The notes under the pieces are model-generated. The model was given only the letters and a program-made list of their open reading frames with translations. It was not told the DNA's origin and did not search any database. A stretch of 64,000 nucleotides of DNA from contig CAXXEA010000003.1 in the NCBI GenBank assembly GCA_963674885.2, positions 3,854,984 through 3,918,983 on the forward strand, read 5' to 3'. The position numbers and the translations under genes are program-made. Positions 33,546 through 64,000 of this stretch are shown here, piece after piece (the first letter of the stretch is position 1; each line of letters begins with the position of its first letter). The DNA comes from Desulfobacterales bacterium (GTDB taxonomy: Bacteria > Desulfobacterota > Desulfobacteria > Desulfobacterales > UBA5852).

Positions 33546-33577
33546 TAGTTTATTGACATTTATTCATTATTTTGTGT

Positions 33578-35617: not shown

Positions 35618-35625
35618 CCTATCCA

Positions 35626-46677: not shown

Positions 46678-46690
46678 AGGTCAGTACTTA

Positions 46691-46831: not shown

Positions 46832-46888
46832 TACTTAACAACAGTCGTTGGTCATCGGGGCCAAACAGGATCCAAGGATTCCACCCCC

Positions 46889-48144: not shown

Positions 48145-49404
48145 CTATTTAAAAAGGGTCTCGTAGACTTCCCAAAAATTCGGGAAGGATTTTTCCACAC
48201 ACCCGGGATTGCGGATGCGTGTTCCCGGCGCCTGCAAGCCGGCAATCGCAAAACTCATGGCAATCCGGTGATCGTTGTAGGTTTCAATTTCAGCCGCGAG
48301 GGGTTGCCCGCCCTCAATATATAGATCATCGCCGGAACTGTGCGCCACGATGCCCATTGACTTGAGTTCCTTTATGACAGCGTCTAAGCGATCACATTCT
48401 TTGGCTCTGAGATGCGCCACGTTTTTAATGCAGGACGTTCCCCGGGCAAAGGCCGCCACAACGGCCACCGTCGGCACCATATCGGGCATATCGCCCATGT
48501 CCGTCTCAATGGGCTTCAGTGCCCCGCCGGCCACAGCAATACCGTCTTGCTCGAAACGCACCCGACATCCCATTTCCTCAAAAAGGTGCAGTATTTTCAG
48601 ATCGCCCTGCAGCGAATCGCCCTGAATGCCAAGGACTTTGATCGATTTACCGGTAATGGCGCCCGCAGCCCAGAAATAGGAGGCATTGGACACATCCGAT
48701 TCTACCGTGCAGCTCCCCGGGCAATATTGTTGGCGTCCCGGAACCATAAAATGCTCATACCCTTCCCGTTCCACCGCCACACCAAATTGTTGCATGATAT
48801 CGACGGTCATATCGATATAGGGGCGGGAAACGGCTCCCCGACGGACATCGATCTGCAGACCGCCATCCGTGTTCGGCGCCATCAGAAGCAGGGAGGACAG
48901 AAACTGGCTGCTGATGGAGCAATCGATATCAACGTGTGTGCCGTTCACCTTCCCGCCCGTGATCAGCAGGGGCGGACATCCATTTTGATTCAGGGACCGG
49001 GCCGGCACCCCGATTTGCCCCAGGCTGTCTAGCAGGGCCTGAACCGGTCGCTCCTGCATGCGGCGTGTACCGGTCAGCAAGTATTCACCCTGGCCCAGCG
49101 CCGCGAGCGATATCAGCAGGCGCATGGAGGTACCTGAATTGCCCAAGAAAATCGGGTCTTCGGTTGGACGGAAATGGCCGTTGCATCCGTTGATTTCAAT
49201 GCCGGAGGTGGCCTCTTTGATCGAAACGCCCATCTGTTGCAACGCATTCATGGTGAGTTGGGTGTCTTCGCTTCTCAGGGCATTTCGAATCACGGATTTC
49301 CCATCGGCCAGAGCGGCCGCAATGAGAACACGGTGGGTATAGCTTTTGGATCCAGGAATCTGAACGACGCTGTTGCGAACAGGCTGTGATGGCGTGACGA
49401 ACAT
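48145..49404 (-). CDS. aroA: 3-phosphoshikimate 1-carboxyvinyltransferase (EPSP synthase)
   Basis: IPGSKSYTHRVLIAAALADG, LGNSGTSMRLL, and a full-length two-domain architecture. Started at ATG 49404 (MFVTPSQP) with GGAGGG upstream. The TTG-extended ORF runs into the repeat element. Confidence 0.9.
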   Translation of the reverse strand: MFVTPSQPVRNSVVQIPGSKSYTHRVLIAAALADGKSVIRNALRSEDTQLTMNALQQMGVSIKEATSGIEINGCNGHFRPTEDPIFLGNSGTSMRLLISLAALGQGEYLLTGTRRMQERPVQALLDSLGQIGVPARSLNQNGCPPLLITGGKVNGTHVDIDCSISSQFLSSLLLMAPNTDGGLQIDVRRGAVSRPYIDMTVDIMQQFGVAVEREGYEHFMVPGRQQYCPGSCTVESDVSNASYFWAAGAITGKSIKVLGIQGDSLQGDLKILHLFEEMGCRVRFEQDGIAVAGGALKPIETDMGDMPDMVPTVAVVAAFARGTSCIKNVAHLRAKECDRLDAVIKELKSMGIVAHSSGDDLYIEGGQPLAAEIETYNDHRIAMSFAIAGLQAPGTRIRNPGCVEKSFPNFWEVYETLFK

Positions 49405-49436
49405 GAGTTCTGGATAACCCTCCTGATCCGAAGTTA

Positions 49437-49596
49437 GTACGCGTCCACAAATGGCCAATTTGCCCGATCCGCCGAAGGCGGATAAATAGCGGCGTTATGC
49501 GGAAAATTGAATCCTCGGAATATTAACAATAGGCCTGCGGTTAAATTTTCCGCACGCCTTGATCTCAACCAAATTTGCCGATTTCTGGATGGGTAC
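49437..49596. repeat. Long imperfect palindrome element, copy A2 (160 nt, TA-flanked)
   Basis: Collinear with A1. It carries an extra ~20-nt insert holding a small hairpin (ccgccgaaggcgg). Flanking TA lies at 49435-36 and 49597-98. Confidence 0.85.
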
Positions 49597-49631
49597 TATA
49601 TATATAACCCCGTTTGGCGTTTCGTCTAAAT

Positions 49632-49662
49632 AAAAAACCGTGGGTATTTTAGGGTACCCACG
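49632..49662 (-). terminator. Rho-independent terminator after the VOC-family gene
   Basis: A 9-bp stem (ccgtgggta / tacccacgg) with a T6 run on the minus strand (the complement of the A6 run at 49632-37). Confidence 0.7.
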
Positions 49663-49825
49663 GCTTTAATGGTCAAGCAACGTTATTTCAGCGGCACCAT
49701 GAACCGGGGGGTATTCCCAACCAGATGCAATAAAAATACCGGTTCCTTTGCGTCGCCATAGAATATTCGTCCCTTATCGGAAAATTCGATTTGGGTGGAA
49801 TCCGTAAATAATCCCCTGAAATTTG

Positions 49826-50440
49826 TCAAGACATTTGTTGTTTTACTGCCGGTGAGCAGGCATTTTCATCCAGCAGAACCGTGCCTTCGCCCGGGTAGAC
49901 CCTGCGTTGCTCACCGGAAGAAGCCGCAGCACGTCTCGGCCATCGTCCCGGCTGCGGTTCACTGCCCTCGGTTGCCAAAATCGAAGGGGCGGTGTCCGCC
50001 ATGCAGGGATTTCCGCGTAGATCGACATCCGCCACCGGCCAGCTGAATTCAATCGGGATGTGGTTCGGATCAAACGTATAAATCGAATAAATGAAACCGT
50101 GGTCGATCACTTCCGATACCCATTGGTCGGCGTCTTCCAGCCGCTGTTTCAACTGCCAAAGATCCTCTTCGTCACGCACTTCAAATGACACATGGTCAAA
50201 TGCAAAGGACCCCTTCACCGGCACGCCATGATCCTTTTCAGGTAACGGCTCGATGCCCGGCCATTCAAAAAAAGCGATCATGTCATGGGCCGAAATCTCA
50301 AAAAAATAGTGTCGATACCCTGGACGCCCCAGCCCTGCCACGAGACGCATACCCAATAAATCACGCCAAAAGGCAATGGTGGCATCGATGTCACCGGTCG
50401 CCATGGCCATATGGTTGATGCCGGTGTAATTGATTTTCAT
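49826..50440 (-). CDS. VOC (glyoxalase/bleomycin-resistance/dioxygenase) family protein
   Basis: INHMAMATGDIDATIAFWRDLLGMRLV ... FDHVSFEV. Started at ATG 50440, which has GGGAGG 8 nt upstream. Confidence 0.75.
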   Translation of the reverse strand: MKINYTGINHMAMATGDIDATIAFWRDLLGMRLVAGLGRPGYRHYFFEISAHDMIAFFEWPGIEPLPEKDHGVPVKGSFAFDHVSFEVRDEEDLWQLKQRLEDADQWVSEVIDHGFIYSIYTFDPNHIPIEFSWPVADVDLRGNPCMADTAPSILATEGSEPQPGRWPRRAAASSGEQRRVYPGEGTVLLDENACSPAVKQQMS

Positions 50441-50477
50441 GTCGAAAAAGCCTCCCAAAGGTTGAACGCAAGTAGCA

Positions 50478-51710
50478 TCATGGCACGGTGGCCTTGTAGA
50501 TTTCCGCCTGGCCGGAGATACGATAGGCTGCGGCGGCCGCAGGAATCAGCAGGCTATCCCCGCGGCGCAAGGGCAATTTCTCGTCGCTGTCGACGACCTC
50601 CAAGGTGGCCCGGCCATCCAGCACGATCAGGATCTCGATGTTGCGGTCCGGCGTGGCCTCATGCCTGCAACCGGCGTTGATCGTCAATTTGGCCAGAGAA
50701 AATTCCGCCGCCGAGGTTGAAAAACAAGCCTCCGTCTCCGAAATTGGCTGAGCAGTCATAACACCGGGATCACTTGATTGAAAGCAAAGCACCCCCATCA
50801 GTTCATCCCGATCGATGTGTTTCGGTGTCAGTCCGCCACGCAGCACGTTGTCCGAATTGGCCATCAATTCGATGCCCACGCCCTCCAGATAGGCATGCAG
50901 TTGGCCGGCAGGCAGGTACATGGCCTGTCCCGGCACCAATTCCACCAGGTTCAGGATGATCGGTGCCAGGATACCGATGTCCCCCGGATAGGCCGTGCTC
51001 AATTTCAGCACCCAGCGGGATATCGGATCTTCCGGCCATTCGGTCGCAGCCCGATCAAGGGCGTCGGCGATGATCTTATTTTTGGTTTGGCCTTGCAGCG
51101 TCAGCATGTTCTCGAACAGCTGCCGCAAGACCTTTTCCGGCCTGGTGTGGTCCAGTGCTGCAAAAAATGGCGATAGCGTATCGGGGCAATAGCGGCTCAA
51201 TTGTCGGCGGAGATCTTCGATGGCACGGAAGCCATTCAATCCCCAGAATTCGGTCAGTGCGCAAAGAATTTCTGGTTTGTGGTTGCCATCCCGGTAGTTG
51301 CGCTGGGGCGCATCCAGCGGAATCCCGGCGCGATTCTCCCGCTCATAACCGGCGCGGGCCTGCGCCATGTTCGGGTGCGCTTGAATCGATAGGGGTTCGG
51401 CCGCGGCCAGGATCTTGAACAGAAAAGGTAATTGATTGCCAAACCGGCGAATAACGTTTTCACCCAATATCGCTGCAGGGGCTTGTGCGATCCAATCTCG
51501 CAAATTCACGCTACGCCCATTGCAAATCACCTGCGACGGCGCCTTAGGGTGCGCCCCCATCCACAATTCCGCTTCCGGCTGCGGCGATGGCACAGGACGG
51601 CCGGTGAGGTCGGCAATGGCGGTCCGGGATCCCCACGCATATGGCATGACAGGATTTTGGAGTCGTCTTACGCGTTGGGCATCCACCACCATGGTCTTCT
51701 TCACTGTCAT
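50478..51710 (-). CDS. manA: Class I mannose-6-phosphate isomerase
   Basis: LQNPVMPYAWGS, ELWMGAHP, LSIQAHPN, and a cupin C-terminal domain. Started at ATG 51710, preceded by GGGGAGGA. Confidence 0.85.
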   Translation of the reverse strand: MTVKKTMVVDAQRVRRLQNPVMPYAWGSRTAIADLTGRPVPSPQPEAELWMGAHPKAPSQVICNGRSVNLRDWIAQAPAAILGENVIRRFGNQLPFLFKILAAAEPLSIQAHPNMAQARAGYERENRAGIPLDAPQRNYRDGNHKPEILCALTEFWGLNGFRAIEDLRRQLSRYCPDTLSPFFAALDHTRPEKVLRQLFENMLTLQGQTKNKIIADALDRAATEWPEDPISRWVLKLSTAYPGDIGILAPIILNLVELVPGQAMYLPAGQLHAYLEGVGIELMANSDNVLRGGLTPKHIDRDELMGVLCFQSSDPGVMTAQPISETEACFSTSAAEFSLAKLTINAGCRHEATPDRNIEILIVLDGRATLEVVDSDEKLPLRRGDSLLIPAAAAAYRISGQAEIYKATVP

Positions 51711-51819
51711 GACATCCTCCCCATACCGCCGGACAAATAAATATTGTCGGAACAATAAAACTCATGCCATAATTCTGTCAATTGGGCATTTATCTAATCA
51801 ATACGACAGCGGAGTCTTG

Positions 51820-53325
51820 ATGGCAATCGGTCAGCGGTTTCGGAGCAAGGCTTTCTTTCAATCGATCGTCCTTACAATATCTTTCAGTATCTGTCTGTGT
51901 CTGATGGGGCCAGTGGGCACCGGGCCAGACGACCCCCTTTCCGCATGGCTAATTGAACAATCAGCCGGTGGCGTAGTAAACCTGAAGGCACGAAATGGCA
52001 GCACACCGGATCAAATCGACTTGCGCCCCGCTTCGATGATTTACCCTTTATTCGAATGGGCCATCAGTATGATCGCCGGCCTGCTTTCCGTCTTCCTCTT
52101 CACCGGATTTCCCTTGCGCTGGTGCTGGACAGCATTCGGAACACTCATGGCAATGATTTTAGGTATGCCAATTTTTTTCTGGCATATCTTCAATGTGACC
52201 ATCGGCAGCAGCGTTCCGCTTCTGTGCGGGGGATTCGGTTTGTGGACCGCCTATGTTCTCCACCAACCGGCGATCTTTTCCGCCCGATCGTTTTTTCCTT
52301 CCCATGAAACAGACGCTATCGATACCGTTGGCGTGAAACCGCGCCCCGCATCATCCCGGCCTGTTGAACCGATCAGCCCCGGAGCAGGCTTCGCTGATCC
52401 ACCGTTTAATGGCGTTGATTCGCCGCTGATTGCCAGAAATGATAATGCCGTTACCACGGCATTGACCATTGGCCGTTATGAAATTATTCGCTCTATTGGT
52501 AGAGGTGCCATGGGCGAGGTTTTTTTGGGCCGCGACCCCCATATCAATCGCCTGACAGCGGTTAAAACCGTGCGTTTCGAAGAACGTTTCGCCGACGATG
52601 ACATCGAGCAAATCAAGGGGAAGTTTTTCCGGGAAGCCGAAAGCGCGGGCACCCTGTCGCATCCCCATATCGTCACCATCTACGATGCCGGCGAGGACGG
52701 GGATTGCGCCTATATCGCCATGGAGTTCCTGGAAGGATCCACTCTGCTGCGGTTCGCCCGGCGCAAACGCCTGCTGCCGCTCAGAAGGCTCATCCGCTAC
52801 ATGGTGCAAGTCGCTGATGCACTGGATTACGCCCATTCCCAAGGCGTGACCCACCGCGATATCAAGCCTGCCAACATTATGCTGATGCATTCCGGTCAGA
52901 TCAAAATCACGGATTTTGGTATTGCCCACCTGGCCACCTCTTCCCAAACCCAAACCGGTGTCGTGAAGGGAACGCCGTATTATATGTCGCCGGAGCAATT
53001 TTCAGGACAAAAGGTCGATGGCCGGTCCGATATCTTTTCTTTGGGGACCACCATGTTTCAACTCCTCACCGGAACTCTGCCGTTCTATGCCGAAAGCCCG
53101 GCCCTGCTGATGAACCAGATCATGAACTTCCCCCATCCCAACCCGCGTGCCATCAACCCGCGTGTGATTCCGGCCGTTGTTGCCATTGTGGACAAGGCGC
53201 TTGAGAAAGACCGGGACAACCGCTACCAAACCGCTAAGGATCTGGCCCGGGATCTATGCCGGCTGGACAAACGCATCATGGCGGTGCTGCGCAAAGATCG
53301 CGCACGAAGCGCACCGGGGAGATGA
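51820..53325 (+). CDS. Hanks-type Ser/Thr protein kinase with N-terminal multi-TM region
   Basis: The kinase domain lies in the C-terminal half (YEIIRSIGRGAMGEVFLG, AVKTV, HRDIKPANIML, DFGIA, GTPYYMSPEQ). Started at ATG 51820 (GGAG upstream), because the ORF-track start of 51436 lies antisense inside manA. Confidence 0.85.
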   Translation: MAIGQRFRSKAFFQSIVLTISFSICLCLMGPVGTGPDDPLSAWLIEQSAGGVVNLKARNGSTPDQIDLRPASMIYPLFEWAISMIAGLLSVFLFTGFPLRWCWTAFGTLMAMILGMPIFFWHIFNVTIGSSVPLLCGGFGLWTAYVLHQPAIFSARSFFPSHETDAIDTVGVKPRPASSRPVEPISPGAGFADPPFNGVDSPLIARNDNAVTTALTIGRYEIIRSIGRGAMGEVFLGRDPHINRLTAVKTVRFEERFADDDIEQIKGKFFREAESAGTLSHPHIVTIYDAGEDGDCAYIAMEFLEGSTLLRFARRKRLLPLRRLIRYMVQVADALDYAHSQGVTHRDIKPANIMLMHSGQIKITDFGIAHLATSSQTQTGVVKGTPYYMSPEQFSGQKVDGRSDIFSLGTTMFQLLTGTLPFYAESPALLMNQIMNFPHPNPRAINPRVIPAVVAIVDKALEKDRDNRYQTAKDLARDLCRLDKRIMAVLRKDRARSAPGR

Positions 53326-53444
53326 CATGACCCCGCACGAAGCCGCAGTCCCCTGCTGAAATTGATGAACCACGTGGTGTGATCCTGTCTGTGAATGACG
53401 CGGAAAGGACGATTCGCATCGGTCTGGTGCAACGGCTCGACAGC

Positions 53445-53472
53445 TTGACTTGCCGGGGTTATCTGCTATAAT
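53445..53472 (+). promoter_or_regulatory. Candidate sigma70 promoter upstream of the PP2C gene
   Basis: TTGACT at 53445-50, a 16-nt spacer, then consensus TATAAT at 53467-72. Lies about 100 nt upstream of the start at 53574. Confidence 0.45.
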
Positions 53473-53573
53473 TTTTTTTCGTACTTATAATACCTAAACC
53501 ATTTGAGATCATTGTATAATCAATTGTGTAACATTATTCCTTATCGCTGTGTGCGAGCGGCAAACCTTTTGGG

Positions 53574-54392
53574 ATGGCCATGATCGTTATCGCATCCGCA
53601 GGTCTTTCCGATATCGGGCGGAAACGCCATTCCAATCAAGATGCTTTTTTGATGGATGATGCCCATGGCCTCTATGTGGTGGCCGATGGCATGGGAGGGC
53701 ATCAAGCAGGCGAAGTGGCCTCACAAATTGTGGTTGATTCGATTCATCAATATTACGCTGCAAGTCCGCCCGATGCAGATCAAGAGACGACACGGCATGA
53801 CCCTTCTTTATCTCCGTATGCCAATCGATTGCGCGAAGCCATCCACTACGCAAATCAAAAGGTTTACCAGGCAGCGGCGGACAATAAGGCCTACCGGGGC
53901 ATGGGATCGACTTTGGCCGCAGTCCACTTTTCCCGGAACACGTTCATTGCCGCCAATGTTGGCGACAGTCCCATTTATCTCATTCATGAAAATGCGATTG
54001 AGACCCTTTCGGTGCCGCACACCCTGATGGCCGAGCAACGGGAGTTCCATCCGGAAGACCAGACCCTCTTCAGCCCAGACCTGCAGCACATGCTGACAAG
54101 AGGCATGGGCGTGGAAAACACCGTTCAGCCTGACATTTGTGAGTCTCCCTGTTTTAACGGTGATCGTCTTGTTCTTTGTTCGGACGGCTTGAGCGGCAAA
54201 GTCACACCGGAAGAGATGCTCGCTGTGGTAGCGGCCCACAGCGCCCCCGACGCTTGCCAAAAACTCATTGAAATGGCAAACCAGCGAGGGGGCGATGACA
54301 ATATTACCGCCCTTGTCTTGCACGTTGATACCGCCAACACGCTTTTCCAACGGCTACGCCATTGGTTCGGCCACTTGAGAGGCGGCAATTGA
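53574..54392 (+). CDS. PP2C-family Ser/Thr phosphatase
   Basis: 272 aa with RKRHSNQDAF, VADGMGGHQAGEVAS, LCSDGL and GGDDNITALV. Confidence 0.9.
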   Translation: MAMIVIASAGLSDIGRKRHSNQDAFLMDDAHGLYVVADGMGGHQAGEVASQIVVDSIHQYYAASPPDADQETTRHDPSLSPYANRLREAIHYANQKVYQAAADNKAYRGMGSTLAAVHFSRNTFIAANVGDSPIYLIHENAIETLSVPHTLMAEQREFHPEDQTLFSPDLQHMLTRGMGVENTVQPDICESPCFNGDRLVLCSDGLSGKVTPEEMLAVVAAHSAPDACQKLIEMANQRGGDDNITALVLHVDTANTLFQRLRHWFGHLRGGN

Positions 54393-54535
54393 TCGGGCCG
54401 TTGCACGTCGGGGACCCTTTGAGACGAATCGGATTGATTCATGAGAGGCGTCATGGAAAATACGCTGCATCTCTTTTTTCCAGAGACCGTCAATTAGCTG
54501 ACTTAGGCGGGTAAGACCAATAAGGGGAAAGACAT

Positions 54536-55246
54536 ATGCCAACCATCACCCTCAAGTTTAAGAACAACACCATTGGAACCTACGATTTGCAATCGGGGCA
54601 GACGCTCACCATCGGACGATTGGACGACAATGACATCGTCATCGAGAACCTGGCGGTTTCCGGCCGGCATGCCAAGATCGATACGGTTGGCGAAGGCTAT
54701 CTCCTGACGGATTTGCAGAGCAAAAATGGTTGTTTTGTGAATGAAAAACTCGTTGCTTCGCACTGGCTCAATCATGGTGACAAGGTGAGTATCGGCAAAC
54801 ACCTCCTCCAGTTTACTTTCAAGGAAGGAGAGGTGCGCCCCCCCGCCCCGTCCGTTGATCAGCGGGATCAAACCATGGTGATGGATACCGGGCATTATCG
54901 CGACATGCTTTCCAAAAGCGGTGCGGAAGGACGATTATCATCCGAAACCGGCAAACCGGTGGGGGTTTTGTCCTATCTTGCCGGCGGAGAGGGTGAATTC
55001 GAACTGGCGCGCAAATTGGTCAAAATCGGTAAAGACCCCAATAGTGACATCCAAGTCAGCGGCCTCACCATCGGTCATACGACCGCCACCATCAGTAAAC
55101 GCCCCAATGGCTACGTGTTGAGCTATGTTGCCGGCCTATCCAAACCCAAGGTCAACGGCAAGGCCGTCAAGCAGTCCGTTGCGCTGAATGAATTCGATGT
55201 CATAGAAATCGGGTCGCTCAAGCTGCAGTTTTTTACCAAAGAATGA
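54536..55246 (+). CDS. Protein with two FHA domains
   Basis: 236 aa. FHA-1 is TIGRLDDNDIVIENLAVSGRHAKI ... DLQSKNGCFVN. FHA-2 is VKIGKDPNSDIQVSGLTIGHTTATI ... KPKVNGK. Confidence 0.85.
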   Translation: MPTITLKFKNNTIGTYDLQSGQTLTIGRLDDNDIVIENLAVSGRHAKIDTVGEGYLLTDLQSKNGCFVNEKLVASHWLNHGDKVSIGKHLLQFTFKEGEVRPPAPSVDQRDQTMVMDTGHYRDMLSKSGAEGRLSSETGKPVGVLSYLAGGEGEFELARKLVKIGKDPNSDIQVSGLTIGHTTATISKRPNGYVLSYVAGLSKPKVNGKAVKQSVALNEFDVIEIGSLKLQFFTKE

Positions 55247-55368
55247 CGGCTGAGCTAAAGGCGCGCGATCGGCGTTACGCTTCGCCCCTCGTCAATGCGA
55301 CGTACGCGATGTACGCCTCCTTCCTCGTGCCTCGCAAGCCTTGATCTCGAACCTTTAGCTCAGCCGTC
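55245..55368. repeat. Long imperfect palindrome element, short or degenerate copy (124 nt)
   Basis: Perfect 17-bp terminal inverted repeat (gacggctgagctaaagg / cctttagctcagccgtc). The internal words gccttgatctcg, gtacat and cgatcggcgtta match the family core. Its first 2 nt overlap the FHA gene TGA stop. Confidence 0.7.
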
Positions 55369-55449
55369 GGTGCTTAAATAAAGACCGCTAAGTTGCCATG
55401 CGCGTTCCGGCATAAAACCGAATACCACCCTATTATCGGGTTGTGAAGC

Positions 55450-56859
55450 GTGAAAGTCGCTTTTCTACATTATCATCTCAGGCCAGGCGGCGTTACAACC
55501 GTTCTGCGCCATCAGTTAGAGGCCCTTAAAGATGACGCCGCATTGCTGGTGATCAGTGGTGAGCCGCCGCCGGCAAATTTCCCGTGTGACGTCGTCTGCA
55601 TCCCTGGTATCGGATATGCGGGTAAAAGCGACCTCACGCAAAATGCCAGCCAGATTGCCGACCAGATCCTTTGTGCGGTTGAGCGGCACTTCGGCGGCCC
55701 CTGTGACCTCCTCCACATTCATAACCCGCTTCTGGCCAAGAACCCTTTGTTGCCGGAAATCCTTCAATCACTCCAACACGCCGGTCTCAACCTGTTTCTA
55801 CAGGTTCACGATTTCGCCGAAGACGGTCGCCCAGGCGTTTTTTACAAAGAAACCGCCTATCCTCAAAACTGCCATTATGGGGTGATCAATCTCAGAGATT
55901 ACCATATTCTCACAAGCGCCGGACTCCTGCCCGACGGCCTGCATTACCTGCCCAATTGTGTGCGCCCCTTCGATGATGCATCGGACGCCCCTACGGGGTC
56001 CTATGGCCTCTATCCGGTACGGGCCATCCGGCGCAAAAACATTGGAGAAGCCATTCTCCTTTCTCTTTTTCTCCCTGGCGATGACGCGATCTATATCACC
56101 CAGCCGCCCAACAGCGCGGTTGATTTTCCCAGCTACAACCACTGGCGGTCCTTTGTCGCCCGTCACAATCTGCCGGTGCACTTCGAGATGGGAAAACACC
56201 GCAACTTCCAGGATCTGGTTTCGGGAGCCAAGTGGGTTCTGACCACCAGCATTGCGGAAGGGTTCGGGTTCGCCTTTCTGGAACCCTGGACGGCTGGGAA
56301 ACGATTGACAGGGCGGCATCTGCCGCAAATTTGCCAAGATTTTGCAAACCAGGGCATCCGTTTGGAACATTTGTACCAAGGCATCCGGATACCGCAGAAC
56401 TGGCTTGGACGCCAACGGCTCCATGATCGATTCCACGCCTGCCTTGAAGCCAATCAGCGTGCATTCGCCCCCCTGTGGCCCGACAGTTGGATGACGGCGT
56501 GTCTGCATCAACTGGAGCGGGCAGAAGCCATCGATTTTGGAATGCTGGATGAGGGGTTTCAGACCGCTGTCATTGATATGGTGCGGCAAATTCCAGCCCG
56601 GCGCAATGCTCTTCTTGAGCGCAATCCTTTTCTTAACACCTTGTTTTCAAATGAAAAGACATCGGATTTGACCTTATTGAACCGTGAGCGTGTGTTAGCG
56701 CTTTATCCTCTCGGCCGCTATCGCGCCAAACTGCTCGAGACGTATGCCCGCATCTTGAAAAAACCGGTGCAACAGGCCATCGACCGCCGAGTGCTTCTCA
56801 CCGGCTATTTAAATTTCCGTAATTTCAGTCTGTTGAAATGGGGCTCTTTTCATGCATGA
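55450..56859 (+). CDS. GT-B-like glycosyltransferase, family uncertain
   Basis: 469 aa with a GTG start. N-terminus MKVAFLHYHLRPGGVTTVL and a later SIAEGFGFAFLEPWTAG, reminiscent of retaining GT-B enzymes. No firm family call. Confidence 0.45.
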   Translation: MKVAFLHYHLRPGGVTTVLRHQLEALKDDAALLVISGEPPPANFPCDVVCIPGIGYAGKSDLTQNASQIADQILCAVERHFGGPCDLLHIHNPLLAKNPLLPEILQSLQHAGLNLFLQVHDFAEDGRPGVFYKETAYPQNCHYGVINLRDYHILTSAGLLPDGLHYLPNCVRPFDDASDAPTGSYGLYPVRAIRRKNIGEAILLSLFLPGDDAIYITQPPNSAVDFPSYNHWRSFVARHNLPVHFEMGKHRNFQDLVSGAKWVLTTSIAEGFGFAFLEPWTAGKRLTGRHLPQICQDFANQGIRLEHLYQGIRIPQNWLGRQRLHDRFHACLEANQRAFAPLWPDSWMTACLHQLERAEAIDFGMLDEGFQTAVIDMVRQIPARRNALLERNPFLNTLFSNEKTSDLTLLNRERVLALYPLGRYRAKLLETYARILKKPVQQAIDRRVLLTGYLNFRNFSLLKWGSFHA

Positions 56860-57691
56860 TTCCCGTTTTCGGCACCTTATCCACTATCTTGCCCCCATAC
56901 CCAGTCGGTATCCCGCCGGAGGGGGACTGAACAAGCCCATACGGGCGGCCATATTCGATATTTACGGAACCCTCTTTATCAGCGACGCCGGCGGCATCGG
57001 TACGCCCAAAACGGACGTGCCGCGTGTCTCAGGGCTTGAGGATGTATTGCGTCAATATGGCATCGCCACGTCTCCGGATCGAATTTCAAAGCGGTTGGTT
57101 CAGTCGATCCGAACAGCGCACCACGTTAAAAAGGAAAAGGGGATTTCCTATCCGGAAATCGAAATCGATGCAATTTGGCAGGACATTCTCAAGTGGCCGG
57201 ATCGCAATCGCATCCGCGACTTTGCCATTGCATACGAATGGACGGTCAATCCAGCTTTTCCAATGCCCGGCCTTGATGAAACGCTCCGCACGCTGCGGCA
57301 CCGGGGGCTGAAAATGGGGATCATCTCCAACGCGCAGTTTTTTACCCCCCTGCTCTTTGAATGGTTTTTGGGAGCCCCCCCGACCGATCTCGGATTCGAT
57401 GATGACCTGACCCTCTATTCCTACCAGCATGGAGAAGCCAAACCTTCCCACAGCCTTTTTGCCATTTGCGCGGACCGGCTCCGTGATTTGGGATTTCCCC
57501 CGGAATCCGTTGTTTTTATCGGCAATGACATGCTGAACGATATCGTACCGGCAGCCAACGCCGGGTGGCAGACGGCACTGTTTGCCGGCGACCGCCGGTC
57601 CCTGCGATTGCATCGAAACCGGGAAGAATGCCTGAAACTGGAACCCGACCTCGTGTTGACGGATTTAAGACAGTTGCTCGATTGGATCTGA
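56852..57691 (+). CDS. HAD-superfamily hydrolase (motif I is D-x-Y, dehalogenase-like)
   Basis: 279 aa. Motif I AAIFDIYGTLF, motif II GIISNA, motif III GEAKPS and motif IV FIGNDMLNDI. The start overlaps the upstream stop (ATGCATGA). Confidence 0.8.
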   Translation: MHDSRFRHLIHYLAPIPSRYPAGGGLNKPIRAAIFDIYGTLFISDAGGIGTPKTDVPRVSGLEDVLRQYGIATSPDRISKRLVQSIRTAHHVKKEKGISYPEIEIDAIWQDILKWPDRNRIRDFAIAYEWTVNPAFPMPGLDETLRTLRHRGLKMGIISNAQFFTPLLFEWFLGAPPTDLGFDDDLTLYSYQHGEAKPSHSLFAICADRLRDLGFPPESVVFIGNDMLNDIVPAANAGWQTALFAGDRRSLRLHRNREECLKLEPDLVLTDLRQLLDWI

Positions 57692-58043
57692 TAACTGGCA
57701 CAGCCGAACAGTCCCCCGGGTTCCTTTCCAGGGACATCATATGAGCGCACCATATCGCGCATGATGATCAATTGGCGGTTTTTAGCTTTATTTACTTGCA
57801 AAACACGCCCGGTGGGCTATATATTTCCGAATTAATTTAGAACCCAATAACTGATTTGGAAACGTCCAGGAAACATACGGTATTTAAAGTGATTACATCA
57901 TGTTGACATATGAAGAATGGCTCACGCTTTCCCGACCCAGCCCGAATTCTATCGTTATTGCCACTTCCGGTGACGCCCGCCTGAACATGGCCTCCGGGCA
58001 AACACGCGGGCCGCGCATCGAACCACAATCCACCAAACGATAA

Positions 58044-59261
58044 ATGCTTACTCAAATCGCGATTCTGATCATTTTGCTGTTTCTTTCCGGTTTTTTTTCT
58101 TCTGCTGAAACGTCTCTTTTTTCCATCAGCCAAACCAAAGCACGCCATCTGGCCAAAAGCGGCGGCCTCGCCGGCACTCTGATAAGCCGGATGAAAGAGG
58201 ATCCCCACCGCCTTCTGACAACCATTCTGATTGGCAACAATGTGGTCAATGTCGGGGCGGCATCCCTGGCGACATCCCTGGCCATCGGCACGTTTCCCGG
58301 CTATGCGGTGGGAATCGCCACCGGCATCATGACGTTTCTGATTCTGGTATTCGGCGAGGTTTTCCCCAAATCGATCGCCACCCGCAACAATATCCTCATT
58401 GCCCGCATCGCCATTTACCCGATCTACTGGCTCTCGATCCTCTTTTTCCCAGTGCTGATTTTTCTGAACTTCATTCCGTATTTAACCGGCAAGATAAAAA
58501 AATCACCCCGGGTAACTGAAGAAGAACTGATGACGATTGTCGAAGCGGTTGAAGAAGAGGGACAGATCAAGGAAGAAGAAAAAGAACTGATTCACAACAT
58601 TTTTGAATTCGACGACACCAATGCCTCCGAAATTATGACGCCACGCGGCGATATGTTTGTCATCGATGCCGACGAACCTCTGGATTTGAAAGCCATCCTG
58701 GCTTCAGGCTACACCCGTATTCCAGTGTTCAAAGACGACATCGACCATATTATCGGCATCATCAATCTCAAGGACCTTTACTACAACTCCGTTACGTCTG
58801 ATCAACCGATCGATGTCCATAAAATTATGCGTCCGCCCTATTTTGTGCCGGAGCACAAAAAACTCGACAAATTGCTCCAGCAGTTTAAAAAACGGCGCAA
58901 TCACATGGCGGTCGTTGTGGACGAACACGGCGGTGTGTCCGGTTTGATTACCCTTGAAGATGCCCTGGAAGAAATTGTGGGGGATATATCGGACGAAACC
59001 GATAAAGAGGAACAGCACATCATCAATACCCAACCCAAGGAGTGGGTTGTGCTGGGAAAAACGGATATCGACGAAGTCAATCACGAGATTCCCATGAGAA
59101 TTCCCGATTCCAAGGAATACGATACGTTTTCAGGTTATATCCTCTATAAGATCGGACGCATTCCCCAGGAAAAAGAAGAAATTATCATCGATGACTTTCG
59201 TATCACGGTAAAAGAGGTGGACGGCGTCCGCATCAAAAAATATGTTCTTCGCCAAGTGTGA
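58044..59261 (+). CDS. CNNM/DUF21-CBS-CorC_HlyC family transporter (TlyC/CorC-like)
   Basis: 405 aa. N-terminal DUF21 TM domain (FFSSAETSLFS), a CBS pair, and a C-terminal CorC/HlyC domain. Confidence 0.9.
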   Translation: MLTQIAILIILLFLSGFFSSAETSLFSISQTKARHLAKSGGLAGTLISRMKEDPHRLLTTILIGNNVVNVGAASLATSLAIGTFPGYAVGIATGIMTFLILVFGEVFPKSIATRNNILIARIAIYPIYWLSILFFPVLIFLNFIPYLTGKIKKSPRVTEEELMTIVEAVEEEGQIKEEEKELIHNIFEFDDTNASEIMTPRGDMFVIDADEPLDLKAILASGYTRIPVFKDDIDHIIGIINLKDLYYNSVTSDQPIDVHKIMRPPYFVPEHKKLDKLLQQFKKRRNHMAVVVDEHGGVSGLITLEDALEEIVGDISDETDKEEQHIINTQPKEWVVLGKTDIDEVNHEIPMRIPDSKEYDTFSGYILYKIGRIPQEKEEIIIDDFRITVKEVDGVRIKKYVLRQV

Positions 59262-59407
59262 TGAATTCTATCCTCATTGTTATCACCGAGCCATCTTTGG
59301 TGCATTCGCACCTGCCGGTCACCGCAAAACGCCGCCACCCCTTCCAATCGCCTTTCCAAGCAGGGTTGCCATCACCCATCGGGCGTTAAACCACAGCAGC
59401 TTTTATA

Positions 59408-59577
59408 GAAGCTATCTCAAAATTAGGATTTTCGTTCGAGATCAAGGCGTGACCGAAAATCAGACGCATAGGCGCCCCGAAGGAAGTGCCCTTGGGGTAC
59501 ATACATTGGTATGTCGAGGAGTTGAGACGAGGGCACAACGCCGATATCGGGCGAAAAGACTTTTTTGAGACAGCTTC
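59408..59577. repeat. Long imperfect palindrome element, copy B2 (170 nt, TA-flanked)
   Basis: GAAGCTATCTCAAAATTAGGATTTTCGTTCGAGATCAAGGCG ... CGCCGATATCGGGCGAAAAGACTTTTTTGAGACAGCTTC. TA lies at 59406-07 and 59578-79. Its last nt is part of the efp stop codon. Confidence 0.85.
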
Positions 59578-60140
59578 TAATCTTTGACCCGCTCTACATA
59601 TTGCCCCGTGCGTGTGTCGATGCGGATTTTCTCCCCTTCCTCCACAAAAGGCGGCACCTGCAGCTCATAGCCGGTTTCCAGGGTTGCCGGTTTGGTGTCG
59701 CCCGAAGCGGTATCCCCTTTTACCCATGGATCCGCTTTAACGATGCGCAGGTCGATAAAAATCGGCAACGTCAATCCGATCGGTCGCCCGTTAAACAGCA
59801 GGACGCTGCAAACCGTATTCTCCTTGATCAACGCTTGCGCTTCGCCAACCTGTTCGCCGGAAAGAAATTCCTGATCGTAGGTGGTGGTGTTCATGAAACA
59901 ATAATTTTCCCCATCCTGGTATAGGTATTCCATTTCCACTTCTTCCAGGCGAGCCGGTTCGACTTTGTCCCCGGAACGATAGGTCTTGTCGAACTGAGTG
60001 CCGGTGACCATATTTTTCAATTTACATTTGTAGAGTGCCTGGCCTTTGCCCGGCTTGACAAATTCAAATTGGGTAATGATGTAAGGATCGCCATCGATCT
60101 CAATTTTCAGGCCTTTTTTCAGTGATCCAGCGTCTATCAT
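59577..60140 (-). CDS. efp: Elongation factor P
   Basis: 187 aa with GDPYIITQFEFVKPGKGQALYKCKLKN and the C-terminal TGYELQVPPFVEEGEKIRIDTRTGQY. Confidence 0.95.
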   Translation of the reverse strand: MIDAGSLKKGLKIEIDGDPYIITQFEFVKPGKGQALYKCKLKNMVTGTQFDKTYRSGDKVEPARLEEVEMEYLYQDGENYCFMNTTTYDQEFLSGEQVGEAQALIKENTVCSVLLFNGRPIGLTLPIFIDLRIVKADPWVKGDTASGDTKPATLETGYELQVPPFVEEGEKIRIDTRTGQYVERVKD

Positions 60141-60193
60141 GGTGGTTCCTCCGTTGGTAAACCCGGTTAAGGGTCACCGCACACTAGTGTTTT

Positions 60194-61036
60194 TCATGAA
60201 TGACTGTGCCCCTCAAGGGAGTCGCTATCGAGGGTGTCCGGCAGCGTCGCGGCCGCTCGCCGGGTTTCTTCAACAAAACGCCGCAGGCGTTCGATATCTT
60301 TTTGGAATCGAATGGGTCGCCCCTGGGCGTCCAGGCGATTGGTGCAGGTACAACTGTCGACGCCGGCCGGTTTGACAAAGCGAATGCCGTCGTAAACATT
60401 TTCCGGCGACAGCCCGCCAGCCAAAATGACCGGTATGGCCGATCGCGCCACCAGTTCCCTTGCCGTTTCCCAGTGACACGTTTGGCCGGTGATGCCGACG
60501 AACCCTTCAACGGGCTGTGATGAAAGATTTCCACCAGTGGCTAAAACCGTATCGGTCAGAAAATAGTCACTGACCCCCTCAAACATCTCGGCCAGTGGCA
60601 GGGTGGCCATGTCAGCATGCGACGCAAGACGTCCGATCGGAATGGATCGCATGATCGCAAGGCCCGGGTATCGCCTGCGAATCTCTCGCTGCAGGGCGAT
60701 CAAGCGCTGACAAACCTGGATGCCGGCAGATTCCAGTGACAGCATTTCGCAAAAATGAACGATGTCCGGGCGGTAATAATCCAGCGTCTCAAATACGGTC
60801 TCGGGATCGTTGAACAACGGTATCAGCGAACTTTTTTTTCCACATTTTTGAACCGTCTGCACGGTTTCACAAAGAACGGGCTGCTGCCATTCCGCCGCTG
60901 ACAACACAACGCTCCCGATATGATCCACCCCGAGTGCGCAAATCGGTGCCACGTCACCAGGGTTCTGAATTTCGTAAATCTGTGTAATCACGTGTAAGGA
61001 CTTCCCCGTCGGAGCGCTGCAGAATGGCAGTGTCAC
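60194..61036 (-). CDS. Phosphoribosylanthranilate isomerase (TrpF)-like TIM-barrel protein
   Basis: 280 aa. The C-terminal ILAGGLSPENVYDGIRFVKPAGVDSCT and the preceding GITGQTCHWE resemble PRAI motifs. No other trp genes are nearby. Confidence 0.5.
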   Translation of the reverse strand: MTLPFCSAPTGKSLHVITQIYEIQNPGDVAPICALGVDHIGSVVLSAAEWQQPVLCETVQTVQKCGKKSSLIPLFNDPETVFETLDYYRPDIVHFCEMLSLESAGIQVCQRLIALQREIRRRYPGLAIMRSIPIGRLASHADMATLPLAEMFEGVSDYFLTDTVLATGGNLSSQPVEGFVGITGQTCHWETARELVARSAIPVILAGGLSPENVYDGIRFVKPAGVDSCTCTNRLDAQGRPIRFQKDIERLRRFVEETRRAAATLPDTLDSDSLEGHSHS

Positions 61037-61220
61037 GCGATCGAAAGGTCATCGTGGGGCGCGCTCGGACGGCCGCAACCCTATAATTCGGTTGACTTTT
61101 GGAGCGGTCTCTAACATATTCAGCCTGAATTCGCAAACCGGTCAAACACCCGCTCGACCGGTTGCCGACATGGCCTAACCCGATGGCGCCTCACTGAAGC
61201 GCCTTTTTTTAGAGGTAGAC

Positions 61221-62750
61221 ATGATCCTGATCATTGATTTCGGTTCCCAGTTCAATCAACTCATTGCCCGCCGCGTCCGAGAGTGTCGGGTTTACTGCCA
61301 AATCGAACCGCCCACGATCACTTGCGAACAGGTCAAGGCCCTGAACCCCGAGGGTATCATCCTGTCCGGCGGCCCCTCCAGCATTTATGAGCCGCGCAGC
61401 CCCAAAATCGATCCCGCCATCCTCGATCTCGGCATACCCGTTCTGGGGATCTGCTACGGTTTGCAATACATGGTTCACGTATTGGGAGGGACCGTTGCCC
61501 GCTCCGCCAAAAGAGAATACGGCTTTGCCGAATTCACCATAAAAAAAGATGACGGCCTATTTACCGGCCTTTCCGCCCAGACCACCTGCTGGATGAGTCA
61601 CGGGGACGCCATCACCAAACTGCCGAAGGGCTTTCATATTACCGGTTCGACTGAGAATACACGCATTGCCGCGGCCAGCGATCCCCGTCGTAAACTCTTC
61701 GGGTTGCAGTTCCACCCGGAAGTCGAGCACACGCCCCGTGGCAAAAAGATGATCCGCAATTTTCTTGCCGATATTTGCGGTTGTCGCATGTCCTGGAACA
61801 TGACGTCTTTTGCCAATCAGACGATTGCGGAAATTCGCAACCGCGTCGGCGACAAAAAAGTTATTCTGGGGCTGAGTGGCGGCGTCGATTCCTCGGTGGC
61901 CGCCCTCCTGATCCATCGGGCTATCGGGAAGAACCTGACCTGTATTTTCGTGGACAACGGTTTACTGCGAAAAGATGAGGCACAGAAACTAAAAGCCGTA
62001 TTCAAGCAGAATCTCGATATCAACATCCGATTTGTAAAAGCTTCCGGCCATTTTCTCAAAGCGCTCAAAGATGTCCAGGACCCCGAGCGCAAACGAAAAA
62101 TCATCGGCAAGATCTTTATGGATGTGTTTGAAGCCGAAGCCAAAAAAATCAAAAACGCTGAATTTCTGGCGCAGGGAACGCTGTACCCCGACATCATTGA
62201 ATCCCAGAGTGCCTTTGGTGGGCCCACATCGGTCATCAAATCCCACCACAACGTGGGCGGACTGCCCAAAAAAATGAAGCTCAAGCTGGTTGAACCGTTG
62301 AAATTTCTTTTCAAGGACGAAGTCCGTAAACTTGGCAAAACCTTGGGCCTGCCGGAAGAAATGAACTGGCGCCAGCCCTTCCCGGGACCCGGCCTGGCCA
62401 TCCGCATTATCGGGGCCGTCACCCCGAAACGCTTGAAAATTTTACGGGAAGTGGACGATCTTCTCATGGCGGAAATCAAAGCGGCCGGCTACTATAAAAA
62501 ACTCTGGCAATCGTTTGCCGTGTTGCTGCCTCTTAAAAGTGTAGGGGTTATGGGAGACAAACGGACCTATGAGAACATCGTTGCCATTCGGGCCGTCACC
62601 AGCAAAGATGCCATGACGGCGGATTGGGCCCGGCTGCCGCACAAATTACTCAACCGCATATCCAACCGCATTATCAACGAGGTCGATGGGGTCAACCGGG
62701 TCGTTTACGATATCAGCTCCAAACCTCCCGGCACCATCGAGTGGGAATAG
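61221..62750 (+). CDS. guaA: Glutamine-hydrolysing GMP synthase
   Basis: 509 aa. GATase (ILGICYGLQ), ATP-PPase P-loop (GLSGGVDSSV) and the C-terminal PPGTIEWE. Confidence 0.95.
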   Translation: MILIIDFGSQFNQLIARRVRECRVYCQIEPPTITCEQVKALNPEGIILSGGPSSIYEPRSPKIDPAILDLGIPVLGICYGLQYMVHVLGGTVARSAKREYGFAEFTIKKDDGLFTGLSAQTTCWMSHGDAITKLPKGFHITGSTENTRIAAASDPRRKLFGLQFHPEVEHTPRGKKMIRNFLADICGCRMSWNMTSFANQTIAEIRNRVGDKKVILGLSGGVDSSVAALLIHRAIGKNLTCIFVDNGLLRKDEAQKLKAVFKQNLDINIRFVKASGHFLKALKDVQDPERKRKIIGKIFMDVFEAEAKKIKNAEFLAQGTLYPDIIESQSAFGGPTSVIKSHHNVGGLPKKMKLKLVEPLKFLFKDEVRKLGKTLGLPEEMNWRQPFPGPGLAIRIIGAVTPKRLKILREVDDLLMAEIKAAGYYKKLWQSFAVLLPLKSVGVMGDKRTYENIVAIRAVTSKDAMTADWARLPHKLLNRISNRIINEVDGVNRVVYDISSKPPGTIEWE

Positions 62751-62753
62751 ACC

Positions 62754-63602
62754 ATGAGCAATAAAGATACCGACAGTTTTCGATTGGGAACCTTCGAGGA
62801 TTCGAAGGAAATCCTGCCGACCGAAGACAACGAGATTGTCGACCTGCAGATCAAGGCATTGAACCGGCGTTTCCGGTGGCTCCTGGTCGTCTTGATCCTG
62901 GTCGTCGGTGGGCTGTTTGCCGCCGGTTATATTGATCTGACAAATCGGTTTTCAGTTCAAAAAACCAGCGGCATTCGTGAAATTCACAACATTTCCGCTA
63001 TTCTTGAGGATCGCCTGAACGAATTGCAGAAGCGCTTGGACGACTTTGACACAAAGATCGCGGAAGAAACGGCCGCCCTGGACCAAAAAACCGTCGTCCT
63101 GCAAAAGGATTTGGCCGCCCTCCGACAACGGTTGGAAGCACTTGATTTATCCGGTGCCGTAAAGAAAGAACAACAGGCCTTTCTGCAAACCGTGCGGAAA
63201 GATCTTGAGCCGCTGGATCAAAAAATGGCGTCCATTCAGTCCGATTTGGCAGGCGTCGAAAAGAAGCTGTCGGCCCAACTGGCGCCGCTCGCCACTGGAC
63301 TGACGCAAAATGCACAAGCCATCGAAACACTCCAGGCGCGCTTTGGTCCGGCTTCGGGCGAATTGGTGAACAAGGACCAGATGGATCTCGAACTGCTCAA
63401 GATCAAGAAAGCCTATCGCCAAAATTTGGCCGCTGAAATTTCGGGACTGGAAAAGCAGATCAGGCTTCTGGTCGAGCGGCTGGAACGGCTTGAAATCTCA
63501 CCGCCCGCCGGCACCTCGCGGCAGACGCCTTCCGGTGCGCCCCAAACCGGATCGAATACACCCGCCGGGAATGCCGGCATACAGGAGCAGAATCTTCCCT
63601 GA
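62754..63602 (+). CDS. Membrane-anchored coiled-coil protein, hypothetical
   Basis: 282 aa with one TM helix (WLLVVLILVVGGLFAAGYI), then heptad-rich sequence and a P/T/G-rich tail. Confidence 0.5.
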   Translation: MSNKDTDSFRLGTFEDSKEILPTEDNEIVDLQIKALNRRFRWLLVVLILVVGGLFAAGYIDLTNRFSVQKTSGIREIHNISAILEDRLNELQKRLDDFDTKIAEETAALDQKTVVLQKDLAALRQRLEALDLSGAVKKEQQAFLQTVRKDLEPLDQKMASIQSDLAGVEKKLSAQLAPLATGLTQNAQAIETLQARFGPASGELVNKDQMDLELLKIKKAYRQNLAAEISGLEKQIRLLVERLERLEISPPAGTSRQTPSGAPQTGSNTPAGNAGIQEQNLP

Positions 63603-64000
63603 ATGGACCGAGACCATCTCAACACGCTTTTAAACGCCGTTGCCCGTCATCAGTTGTCCGTTGACGATGCAACCGAGCAGTTGTCACGTCTGAGCTACGA
63701 AGATGTTTCGTTTGCGCACATCGATCACCATCGCTCGCTGCGCAAAGGCTTCCCGGAAGTCATTTATGGCGAGGGCAAAACCGTTCAGCAGATTACCACG
63801 CTTTTGGAACGCATGATGGGGCAGGAAAGCGTGGTGTTGGTCACACGGATTTCGCCCGAAAAAGCGAAACCGATCATGCGCGCGATCCCCGATTGCCGCT
63901 ATGACGAAGACGCCCGCATGATCATGTGGGGGCAGCCGTCATCCAAAACCGCGGTGCGAGGTGCCATCCTGGTCGTTTCGGCAGGCACATCCGATATTCC
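63603..64000 (+). CDS. LarB/PurE-related (NCAIR mutase-like) protein, 3'-partial at the window end
   Basis: The ATG directly follows the TGA at 63600-63602, and the frame stays open to the window end. Sequence: MDRDHLNTLLNAVARHQLSVDDATEQL ... HIDHHRSLRKGFPEVIYGEGKT ... ILVVSAGTSDI. Confidence 0.65.
   Translation, partial: MDRDHLNTLLNAVARHQLSVDDATEQLSRLSYEDVSFAHIDHHRSLRKGFPEVIYGEGKTVQQITTLLERMMGQESVVLVTRISPEKAKPIMRAIPDCRYDEDARMIMWGQPSSKTAVRGAILVVSAGTSDI

Follow-up and report, generated by a model that had tools for sequence, protein, structure and literature searches.

We examined a 64,000-nt stretch of the genome of a Desulfobacterales bacterium (assembly GCA_963674885.2, contig CAXXEA010000003.1, positions 3,854,984 to 3,918,983; hereafter the window, to whose first letter all coordinates refer), in which five related hairpin elements of 124–170 nt, copies 1 to 5, adjoin housekeeping genes. 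The focal one, copy 2 (59408–59577, + strand, GAAGCTATCTC...GAGACAGCTTC), lies between the convergent genes CNNM/CorC (58044–59261, +) and efp (59577–60140, −) and is flanked by a TA on each side (59406–59407 and 59578–59579); the efp stop codon, TAG, is made of the last C of the element and the flanking TA. Copy 1 (12062–12202, +), also with TA on both flanks, follows the intrinsic terminator (11981–12025) of a Bax1-I-like gene and abuts the TAG stop of a convergent phosphoglucomutase-family gene (12202–13557, −). An aromatic amino-acid operon hosts copies 3 and 4: copy 3 (46691–46831, −, GTGCCCATCCAGAAA...TTTATGGATGGGCAC) occupies, in sense orientation, the gap between aroC and an aminotransferase gene, and copy 4 (49437–49596, −) lies between aroA and a glyoxalase-family gene with its terminator (49667–49634); copies 1 and 4 each stand directly past a good terminator. 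Copy 5 (55245–55368, −, GACGGCTGAGCTAAAGG...CCTTTAGCTCAGCCGTC) separates an FHA-domain gene (54536–55246, +) from a gene for a 469-aa protein without Pfam match, and its outermost 6 bp, GACGGC, overlap the TGA stop of the former.

The initial annotation, made from the letters of the window, had proposed that these five segments are homologous, and their alignment (MAFFT), the count of a shared word and a covariance model all agree with it. The alignment has the invariant blocks GAGATCAAGGC, CGAGG and AACGC; GAGATCAAGGC, whose strand we call the sense strand, has five exact matches in the window, all at the five loci (12092 and 59438 on the + strand; 46791, 49556 and 55338 on the − strand), and seven matches with one mismatch allowed, against 1.0 expected by chance. 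A covariance model made from public copies and run over the window with filters off recovered the five copies only (E 3e-29 to 3e-4), with 114.7 bits for copy 3, 98.1 for copy 1, 69.3 for copy 4, 49.4 for copy 2 (E 3.6e-11) and 24.7 for copy 5 (E 2.6e-4), the best match elsewhere in the window standing at E 0.27; sense strands score 98–115 bits versus 12–13 for antisense. Each copy folds as one interrupted hairpin (−48 to −65 kcal/mol, z-scores of −3.3 to −6.7 against shuffles), as the annotation had announced, and its orientations and boundaries were right, the latter to the base: GAAGC...GCTTC at 12062–12202 and 59408–59577, GTGCCC...GGGCAC at 46691–46831, GTACCC...GCGTAC at 49437–49596 and GACGGC...GCCGTC at 55245–55368. 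The core word AACGC[A/C]GATAT[C/T]GGG, given as common to all, is intact in three copies; in copy 4 a 19-nt hairpin splits it, and copy 5 has a diverged version. The loci are thus similar to one another and match no described family in Rfam, where no part of the window reaches a gathering threshold and the five loci stay without a match at E ≤ 10; a tRNA/tmRNA scan of the window was equally empty, and no sigma-70-like promoter or intrinsic-terminator-like site lies within any of the five copies.

Scanned over one genome per species, the core pattern of the family listed at least 119 matches, about 98 of them true copies and about 25 arising by chance in GC-rich coding sequence of unrelated taxa; the counts of public copies given below hold among these matches listed. 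There, the family is restricted in nearly all cases to Desulfosarcinaceae/Desulfobacterales, the hosts being Desulfosarcina (D. alkanivorans, D. widdelii, D. variabilis, D. cetonica and many metagenome-assembled genomes, MAGs), Desulfococcus, Desulfatitalea and unnamed Desulfobacteraceae/Desulfobacterales. The covariance model, run over 665 kb of the Desulfobacterales loci fetched (loci are labelled L001, L002 and so on), found 25–30 further copies that had not seeded a locus, i.e., about one per 25–30 kb; with five copies in 64 kb, this suggests on the order of 10^2 copies per 7–10 Mb genome. On 2.9 million viral contigs, the core pattern gave 13 matches, all by chance in high-GC coding DNA and none scored by the covariance model, and a blastn search of plasmids and phages with copy 3 returned nothing matching. 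One true member (L079, 6093–6205) stands in a MAG labelled Bacteroidales, reflecting either a binning error or a transfer outside Desulfobacterales.

The annotation had treated the five copies as a single family; homologous they are, but they fall into three subfamilies with different ends, which we call types A, B and C, and outside each element homology drops at once to background. Type A (copies 3 and 4) is about 141 nt long (GTGTCCATCCAGAAATAGGCAAATTTGGTC-core-GGGCAAATTGGCCATTTCTGGATGGGCAC), with terminal inverted repeats GTGYCCRTCCAGAAA. Type B (copies 1 and 2), also of about 141 nt (GAAGCCATCTCAAAATTAGGATTTTCGTTC-core-GGGCGAAAAGACTTTTTTGAGATGGCTTC), ends in TA-GAAGC...GCTTC-TA; its terminal inverted repeat is (TA)GAAGCNNTCTCAAAA, its end sequence is also given as TAGAAGCNNTCTCAAAA, and a TA directly follows the right end in 9 of the 10 copies listed. 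Type C reaches about 170 nt: a leader, TGATGAACTCGTAAAAAGTCGCATTTC, precedes the hairpin GACGGATTCGTAAAAAGCCC-core-GGGCTTTTTACGAATCCGTCA, the left end is duplicated, and copy 5 is a diverged variant of this type. Taken with its leader, type C has TG...CA ends, the left one (TGATGAACTCGTAAAAAG) matching the reverse-complemented right one (TGACGGATTCGTAAAAAG) at 16 of 21 positions. The termini are 5'-TA-3' in four of the five window copies, neither type C nor copy 5 having them. None of the elements has coding capacity, and no open reading frame (ORF) is kept between types.

Insertion has left its mark on the flanks. Type A copies lie between direct repeats of 6–7 bp that follow the pattern TANNTA; about 17 of 42 public copies have perfect repeats, and most of the others have one mismatch. 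Since the variable middle bases match on both sides, the target motif alone cannot account for these repeats. In copy 3, the duplication can be read directly as a perfect 6-bp TAAGTA (right, 46685–46690; left, 46832–46837; − strand), and perfect repeats elsewhere include TGATTA, TAAATA, TAAACTA, TATTTA, TAATGA, TAATCTA, TAGATA, TACCTA, GAGATA, TTTTTA, TAACTA, TAGACTA and TAGGCA. Type C copies carry direct repeats of 3–4 bp (about 11 of 18 copies); TG...CA ends with duplications of 3–4 bp are the usual signature of the IS3 family of insertion sequences (IS).

A partner for type A was found when metagenomes were scanned with its left end, the core being excluded from the query. Locus L144 holds two tandem copies of a 1.68-kb IS whose ends are GTGCCCGTCCAGAAAC...GTTTCTGGACGGGCAC (GTGCCCGTCCAGAAA...TTTCTGGACGGGCAC), separated and flanked by TAGTTA, TAGTTA and TAGCTA; one copy retains an intact ORF of 461 aa, assigned to the ISNCY transposases by NCBIfam NF033593 (409 bits, cutoff 325) and matching Pfam DDE_Tnp_1 and DUF772. 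The IS ends and the outermost nucleotides of type A match at 15 of 15 positions, with the same 6-bp duplication, and the core is absent from the interior of the IS. In a sub-type, A2, both arms past these 15 bp track one IS end (CG.G.ATTTTT) and not the other, with up to about 27 bp shared, which suggests that the element arose by inverted duplication of a single IS end. The same scan also returned core-less minis of 52–75 nt made of the two arms only, as well as type A copies placed 6 bp past the right end of another copy, like the tandem IS of L144. The transposase of L144 would thus be the one that moves type A elements. We take the ISDol1 subgroup of ISNCY, first known from Desulfococcus oleovorans, to be one listed with duplications of 6–7 bp. 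The annotation had stated that no transposase accompanies the family; this holds locally, where the window has just two unrelated rve fragments, and not globally, where the IS of L144 shares the ends of type A. As to the L144 pair itself (397–3761), the transposase of the first copy is split into ORFs of 271 and 227 aa and the two copies are head to tail with the 6-bp TAGTTA between them, as in an IS dimer or in an insertion adjoining an existing end. Other searches for a partner yielded no IS: long repeats among the loci gave none, solo half-elements bracketing a gene were not found in the loci, and of five candidates with paired ends 2–3.6 kb apart, the two checked (L075 and L081) were separate elements around ordinary genes. 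On viral contigs, scans with the type B and C ends gave one chance match and two short leader-like matches without core.

Gain or loss of copies can be followed between close relatives. The MAG GCA_020444045.1 (L001) is 99–100% identical to window positions 49204–64000 (14.8 kb) apart from two missing blocks, 59406–59570 (copy 2) and 55251–55447 (copy 5 and about 75 nt). The latter block, 197 nt on the − strand, is also missing in L003; it comprises most of copy 5 and about 75 nt of leader-side sequence, and it is located between the stop of the FHA gene and the GTG start of the next gene, two codons that lie 4 nt apart in L001. At the copy 2 locus, read in sense, the L001 allele is CAGCAGCTTCTAATCTTT and the filled allele is CAGCAGCTTT-TA-[TAGAAGC...GCTTC]-TA-ATCTTT. 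Copy 4 is present in both L001 and L002, and L002 has the copy 2 locus in a short form, without the nested 28-nt module described below. These elements moved recently.

Where copies settle with respect to genes could be assessed with crude gene calls and small counts. Just 2 of 83 copies lie inside long ORFs, and orientation between co-directional genes is balanced (14 sense, 17 antisense). In about 28 of 49 cases, a convergent gene has its stop codon at the sense 3' end of the copy or a few bases from it; the reverse arrangement, in which the 5' end meets the stop of a gene in the same orientation, was seen for three or four type A copies only and for no type B or C copy. In type A, the stop codon is usually the distal half of the duplicated TANNTA or a TAG composed of the terminal C and the flanking TA; in type B (copies 1 and 2), it is this same TAG, and in type C (copy 5), a TGA inside the terminal CCGTCA. 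A TA-rich target and selection against disrupted genes together explain these positions, but not the orientation bias of about 18 versus 4 for types A and B.

Inside the arms lies a core of roughly 95 nt, common to all three types and not derived from the IS. On 32 aligned type A and B cores, standard pairs make up 95.6% of cells versus 83.6% in shuffles, both sides have changed at 15 of the 30 pairs, and the covariation score is 0.366 versus 0.152 when shuffled (0 of 500 shuffles reach 0.366) and at most 0.10 with partners slid; as pairing and covariation exceed shuffles, the hairpin is maintained, a result by itself silent on whether DNA or RNA is the folded molecule. The unpaired motifs AAGGC, CCG[C/G]AGG, [C/T]GAGG and AACGC persist across subfamilies, and the helices between these fixed loops differ completely: GCGCCCGAAAAATTTTA in type A, GCGAGGCCGAGGATCAG in type B and TTGCGAATCCC in type C. 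Some copies have swapped the GAGATC/GATATC helix for a fully compensated CAGGCC/GGCCTG, and others keep only AAGGC...AAC[A/G]C inside different arms. Small optional hairpins recur at fixed loop positions. One is a module of 27–28 nt before CATA, found in copy 2 and in type A elsewhere: in copy 2 (59464–59499, +), ACGCATAGGCGCCCCGAAGGAAGTGCCCTTGGGGTA stands in place of the CCCGCAGG usually found there, lengthening the copy by a net 28 nt, and the same position is occupied in type A and B copies of L020, L034, L096, L108 and L141. Another, with a UUCG loop, sits in the GATATC helix of copy 4 (19 nt, about 49467–49485) and of L068, and a third, CCCGCT...ACGGG, between GAGATC and AAGGC. An IHF site, a sigma-54 or sigma-70 promoter, a CsrA site and a self-cleaving ribozyme were inspected as identities of the core, and none fits.

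In our reading, to which we give a probability of about 0.8, these are miniature inverted-repeat transposable elements (MITEs), a family found in Desulfosarcinaceae/Desulfobacterales and mobilized in trans by DDE transposases; the mechanism is well supported for type A, and we infer it for type B, including copy 2, and for type C. The MITE-like nature suggested in the annotation is upheld by the inverted ends, the duplications, the filled and empty sites, the roughly one hundred copies in relatives, the lack of coding capacity and, for type A, the IS partner. These elements would then be non-coding DNA transposons of about 125–170 bp whose transposases are encoded elsewhere in the genome. The enzyme would recognize about 15 bp at the tip of each arm and make staggered cuts in a TA-rich target, and gap repair would leave a duplication of 6–7 bp (TANNTA) for type A, of 3–4 bp for type C and, probably, of TA for type B. 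Surviving insertions would be those sparing genes, hence their placement between genes and, very often, right on a stop codon, which is regenerated by the duplicated TA (types A and B) or by the TCA end of the element (type C). Judging from end sequences and duplication lengths alone, types B and C would be served by other transposases, IS630-like and IS3-like, respectively.

One has to keep in mind several observations that weigh against this interpretation. Neither the fetched loci nor the end scans yielded a transposase with the ends of type B or C, and the focal copy is of type B; type B, moreover, shows no consistent duplication beyond TA, and this TA is not separable from an extension of the palindrome. 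Neither empty allele is a textbook clean site: both keep 7–9 nt identical to the right end of the element (CAGCTTCTA at the copy 2 locus, GCCGTCA at that of copy 5, where the outermost 6 bp of the hairpin pair with pre-existing target sequence). The L001 allele of copy 2 fits equally well a single TA target with one nucleotide substitution or a deletion between the 9-nt imperfect repeats CAGCTTtTA/CAGCTTCTA. Either the targets resembled the end of the element itself, which would also account for insertions adjoining copies and for tandem arrays, or the empty alleles could be products of excision or deletion and not ancestral sites. The precise empty allele predicted for copy 3 had 0 matches in the metagenome collection. 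Lastly, an interior core unrelated to the IS is more conserved across subfamilies than the ends, which plain MITE biology does not predict.

The core is also where the competing explanations find their ground. The elements might primarily be structured-RNA genes or cis-elements, such as a protein-binding or processing hairpin, with functional loops and mobility as a secondary trait. Indeed, in 82 of 83 copies the sense strand has a more stable fold than the antisense (by 9.5–11.3 kcal/mol on average), as it does in all three alifold consensus folds (−19/−34/−51 versus −6/−24/−29), the covariance model prefers it by the wide difference in bits given above, AAGGC, CCGCAGG, CGAGGA and AACGC are fixed while helices covary up to the complete GAGATC/GATATC to CAGGCC/GGCCTG swap, a U.G pair is kept in 28 of 32 cores, and optional hairpins at fixed loop positions are found in many RNA families. 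The energy asymmetry, however, may stem largely from the fixed purine-rich loops themselves, and an excess of G.U over A.C (45 versus 19 column-states, p = 0.0016) fades to 22 versus 14 (p = 0.24; 39 versus 16 cells) with strand-neutral pairs, having come largely from the prediction of pairs on the sense strand. Copies lack promoter- or terminator-like signals, match nothing in Rfam even at the relaxed threshold, show no preferred orientation between co-directional genes and, when abutting a stop codon, would usually place their antisense strand in the mRNA of the gene; core-less versions with the same ends occur as well. The structured-RNA alternative raised in the annotation is therefore quite unlikely as the primary identity of these elements, although it may survive as a property of the core. 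The strand asymmetry of folding and the conserved mismatched loops could also speak for movement as single-stranded DNA, in the manner of REP/REPIN-RAYT or IS200/IS605-type elements (PATE), an HUH enzyme reading the folded hairpin with its loops and choosing targets that resemble or complement the element end; tandem and adjoining insertions, and the 7–9 nt of right end retained in both empty alleles, would suit such a scheme. It is nonetheless highly improbable: duplications and inverted ends, as in types A and C, are not products of HUH peel-and-paste, a DDE insertion sequence exists with identical ends and duplication, no gene family recurs beside the elements in 94 loci apart from large housekeeping families, and both orientations coexist in one 64-kb stretch of uniform GC skew.

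If the trans-mobilized MITE is retained, the core still has to be explained. Concerted evolution, i.e., gene conversion among coexisting copies, could have kept it in plain MITEs with a neutral stuffer, and the presence of the same 27–28-nt module at the same position in types A and B suggests exchange between cores; the 52–75-nt minis show that ends persist without a core. Conversion alone, however, would homogenize whole tracts, helices and loops alike, yet only the unpaired motifs are shared, and the unseeded copies of the 665 kb of genome loci include no core-less one; we consider this explanation unlikely, and the contrast between loops and helices suggests selection on the loops. Most simply, the fixed loops would form a protein-binding site on a folded single strand, RNA or DNA, and the core would most likely be a separately selected module aiding the spread or retention of the element through such binding. 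More specifically, and only tentatively, the purine-rich loops AAGGC/AACGC and CCGCAGG/CGAGGA, which are pseudo-two-fold symmetric, might bind a dimeric protein of the host or of a transposon, the core having been joined to the ends of at least three unrelated IS families and spreading with whichever transposase is active.

Bacterial MITEs have been characterized as non-coding elements of less than 200 bp with inverted ends, TA ends, a target duplication, a long stem-loop and filled or empty sites, and those reviewed include Correia/NEMIS, ERIC/IRU, RUP, RPE and YPAL (PMC2229807). The window elements answer to this description, an IS with matching ends being available for type A only: they are below 200 bp, with inverted repeats, duplications, TA termini (types A and B), intergenic dispersal, filled/empty polymorphism, frequent positions at gene ends and a long stem-loop when transcribed (PMC2229807). 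No sequence relation was found to any of the five reviewed families, Correia and ERIC being set apart by their hosts, Neisseria and enterobacteria, respectively, and the host clade, Desulfobacterales, is new. For RUP of Streptococcus pneumoniae, the mobilizing element, IS630-Spn1, was inferred from identical ends and duplication, the same reasoning as for type A and the IS of L144 (PMC2229807); the type A partner, however, belongs to ISNCY (related to IS5/IS1182) and not to IS630, the duplication is 6–7 bp TANNTA instead of TA, and type A has just 15 bp in common with the IS (about 27 bp at most in A2). The L144 IS is a member of the ISNCY family by the curated cutoff of NF033593, and type A shares its 15-bp ends and 6-bp duplication, whereas the window elements have no coding sequence and contain a core absent from the IS. 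YPAL/RU-2 of Yersinia, about 168 bp long, not A+T-rich, without TA ends and with variable short duplications at targets beside dyad symmetry, recalls type C and copy 5 (PMC2229807), but it is unrelated in sequence and host, and the TG...CA ends of type C are IS3-like, the left one being duplicated. Like REPINs, the family forms long symmetric hairpins, with probably hundreds of copies per genome and several coexisting families; unlike REPINs, which make no duplication and whose cognate RAYT gene is single-copy and stands between repeats, it does show duplications, and no RAYT-like recurrent neighbour gene was found in the 94 loci, whole genomes not having been searched for RAYT. Membership in other classes was discarded: PATE derived from IS200/IS605 have neither inverted ends nor duplication and use a fixed 4–5-nt target on one side, whereas types A and C have both; integron attC sites, arrayed by intI in a single orientation, pair R''/R' as RYYYAAC/GTTRRRY, whereas here the AAC of AACGC faces AAGGC and not GTT, and both orientations occur among housekeeping genes; and no Rfam covariance model matched at or near its gathering score.

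A search of the literature on MITEs of Desulfosarcina or Desulfobacteraceae found no description of the family, so that it appears undescribed on the basis of Rfam and the searchable literature, ISfinder and Dfam lying outside this basis. Typical MITEs conserve their ends, whereas this family has three end sets, different duplication lengths and one interior core; the departure from the usual is this structured, conserved core, not derived from the IS and common to MITEs whose ends are of three kinds and whose duplications have three lengths, the element class itself being ordinary. Desulfosarcinaceae are environmentally important sulfate reducers, among them hydrocarbon degraders, and a recently mobile repeat family at the copy number estimated from its density breaks MAG assemblies and creates strain-level differences; as copies often sit on stop codons and inside operons, they may alter mRNA ends. 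Type A and the ISNCY element form a MITE/transposase pair open to testing, in an IS group that has been little studied, and the core, if functional, would be a new protein-binding structured nucleic-acid motif and would point to an unusual mode of MITE evolution.

Several loci hold more unusual relatives. In L124 (4131–4793), four 166-nt units stand in tandem, each with a type-C-like core and only the last with a complete right arm; this array is a head-to-tail amplification of the element. Type C copies of L017 (5400–5640) and L111 (− strand, near its end) carry a nested insert about 85 nt long after AAGGC (..GATAGCGAGC..CCTTACGGCGNACAT..), possibly a further family of small repeats. At L034 (3148–3242), L056 (4244–4338) and L023 (3589–3682), a more distantly related hairpin family keeps just the AAGGC/AAC[A/G]C loop around a short stem-loop, its long arms (ggggatgaaattaattgg...) being different. 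At the end of a viral contig (L171, 98–117), a 22–23-nt match to the type C leader (TTGATGAACTCGTAAAAAGTCG) precedes a different hairpin (GTCATGCTGAGCCCGTCGAAG...); it is located upstream of a phage gene and may be a different element with the same end.

In the window, copy 5 splits a junction that is 4 nt wide in relatives, that between the FHA gene and the gene of the 469-aa protein, within a signalling cluster (51436–57691) encoding a Ser/Thr protein kinase, a PP2C phosphatase, the FHA-domain protein, the 469-aa protein and a HAD hydrolase. A 19-nt string (CGGAATACCACCCTATTAT / CCGAATACCACCCTATTAT) lies downstream of copy 5 in the window (55420–55440) and, in L002 (14672–14700), inside the 3' end of the FHA gene, which it lengthens to 241 aa; this points to a small local rearrangement tied to the insertion of copy 5. 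Elsewhere, the two rve-type (DDE integrase core) fragments mentioned above, at 35246–35584 (−) and 37146–37721 (+), are degraded IS remnants, with no termini like those of the hairpin elements nearby. They mark the high-coordinate border of a low-GC island on the − strand (24000–36000; GC 0.30–0.37 versus about 0.50 elsewhere), whose content of glycosyltransferases, a BNR-repeat protein and a weak ABC-membrane-like ORF, adjoined by sugar-modifying genes (DegT aminotransferase, GFO/hexapeptide transferase and Polysacc_synt_2), looks like a horizontally acquired surface-polysaccharide cluster.

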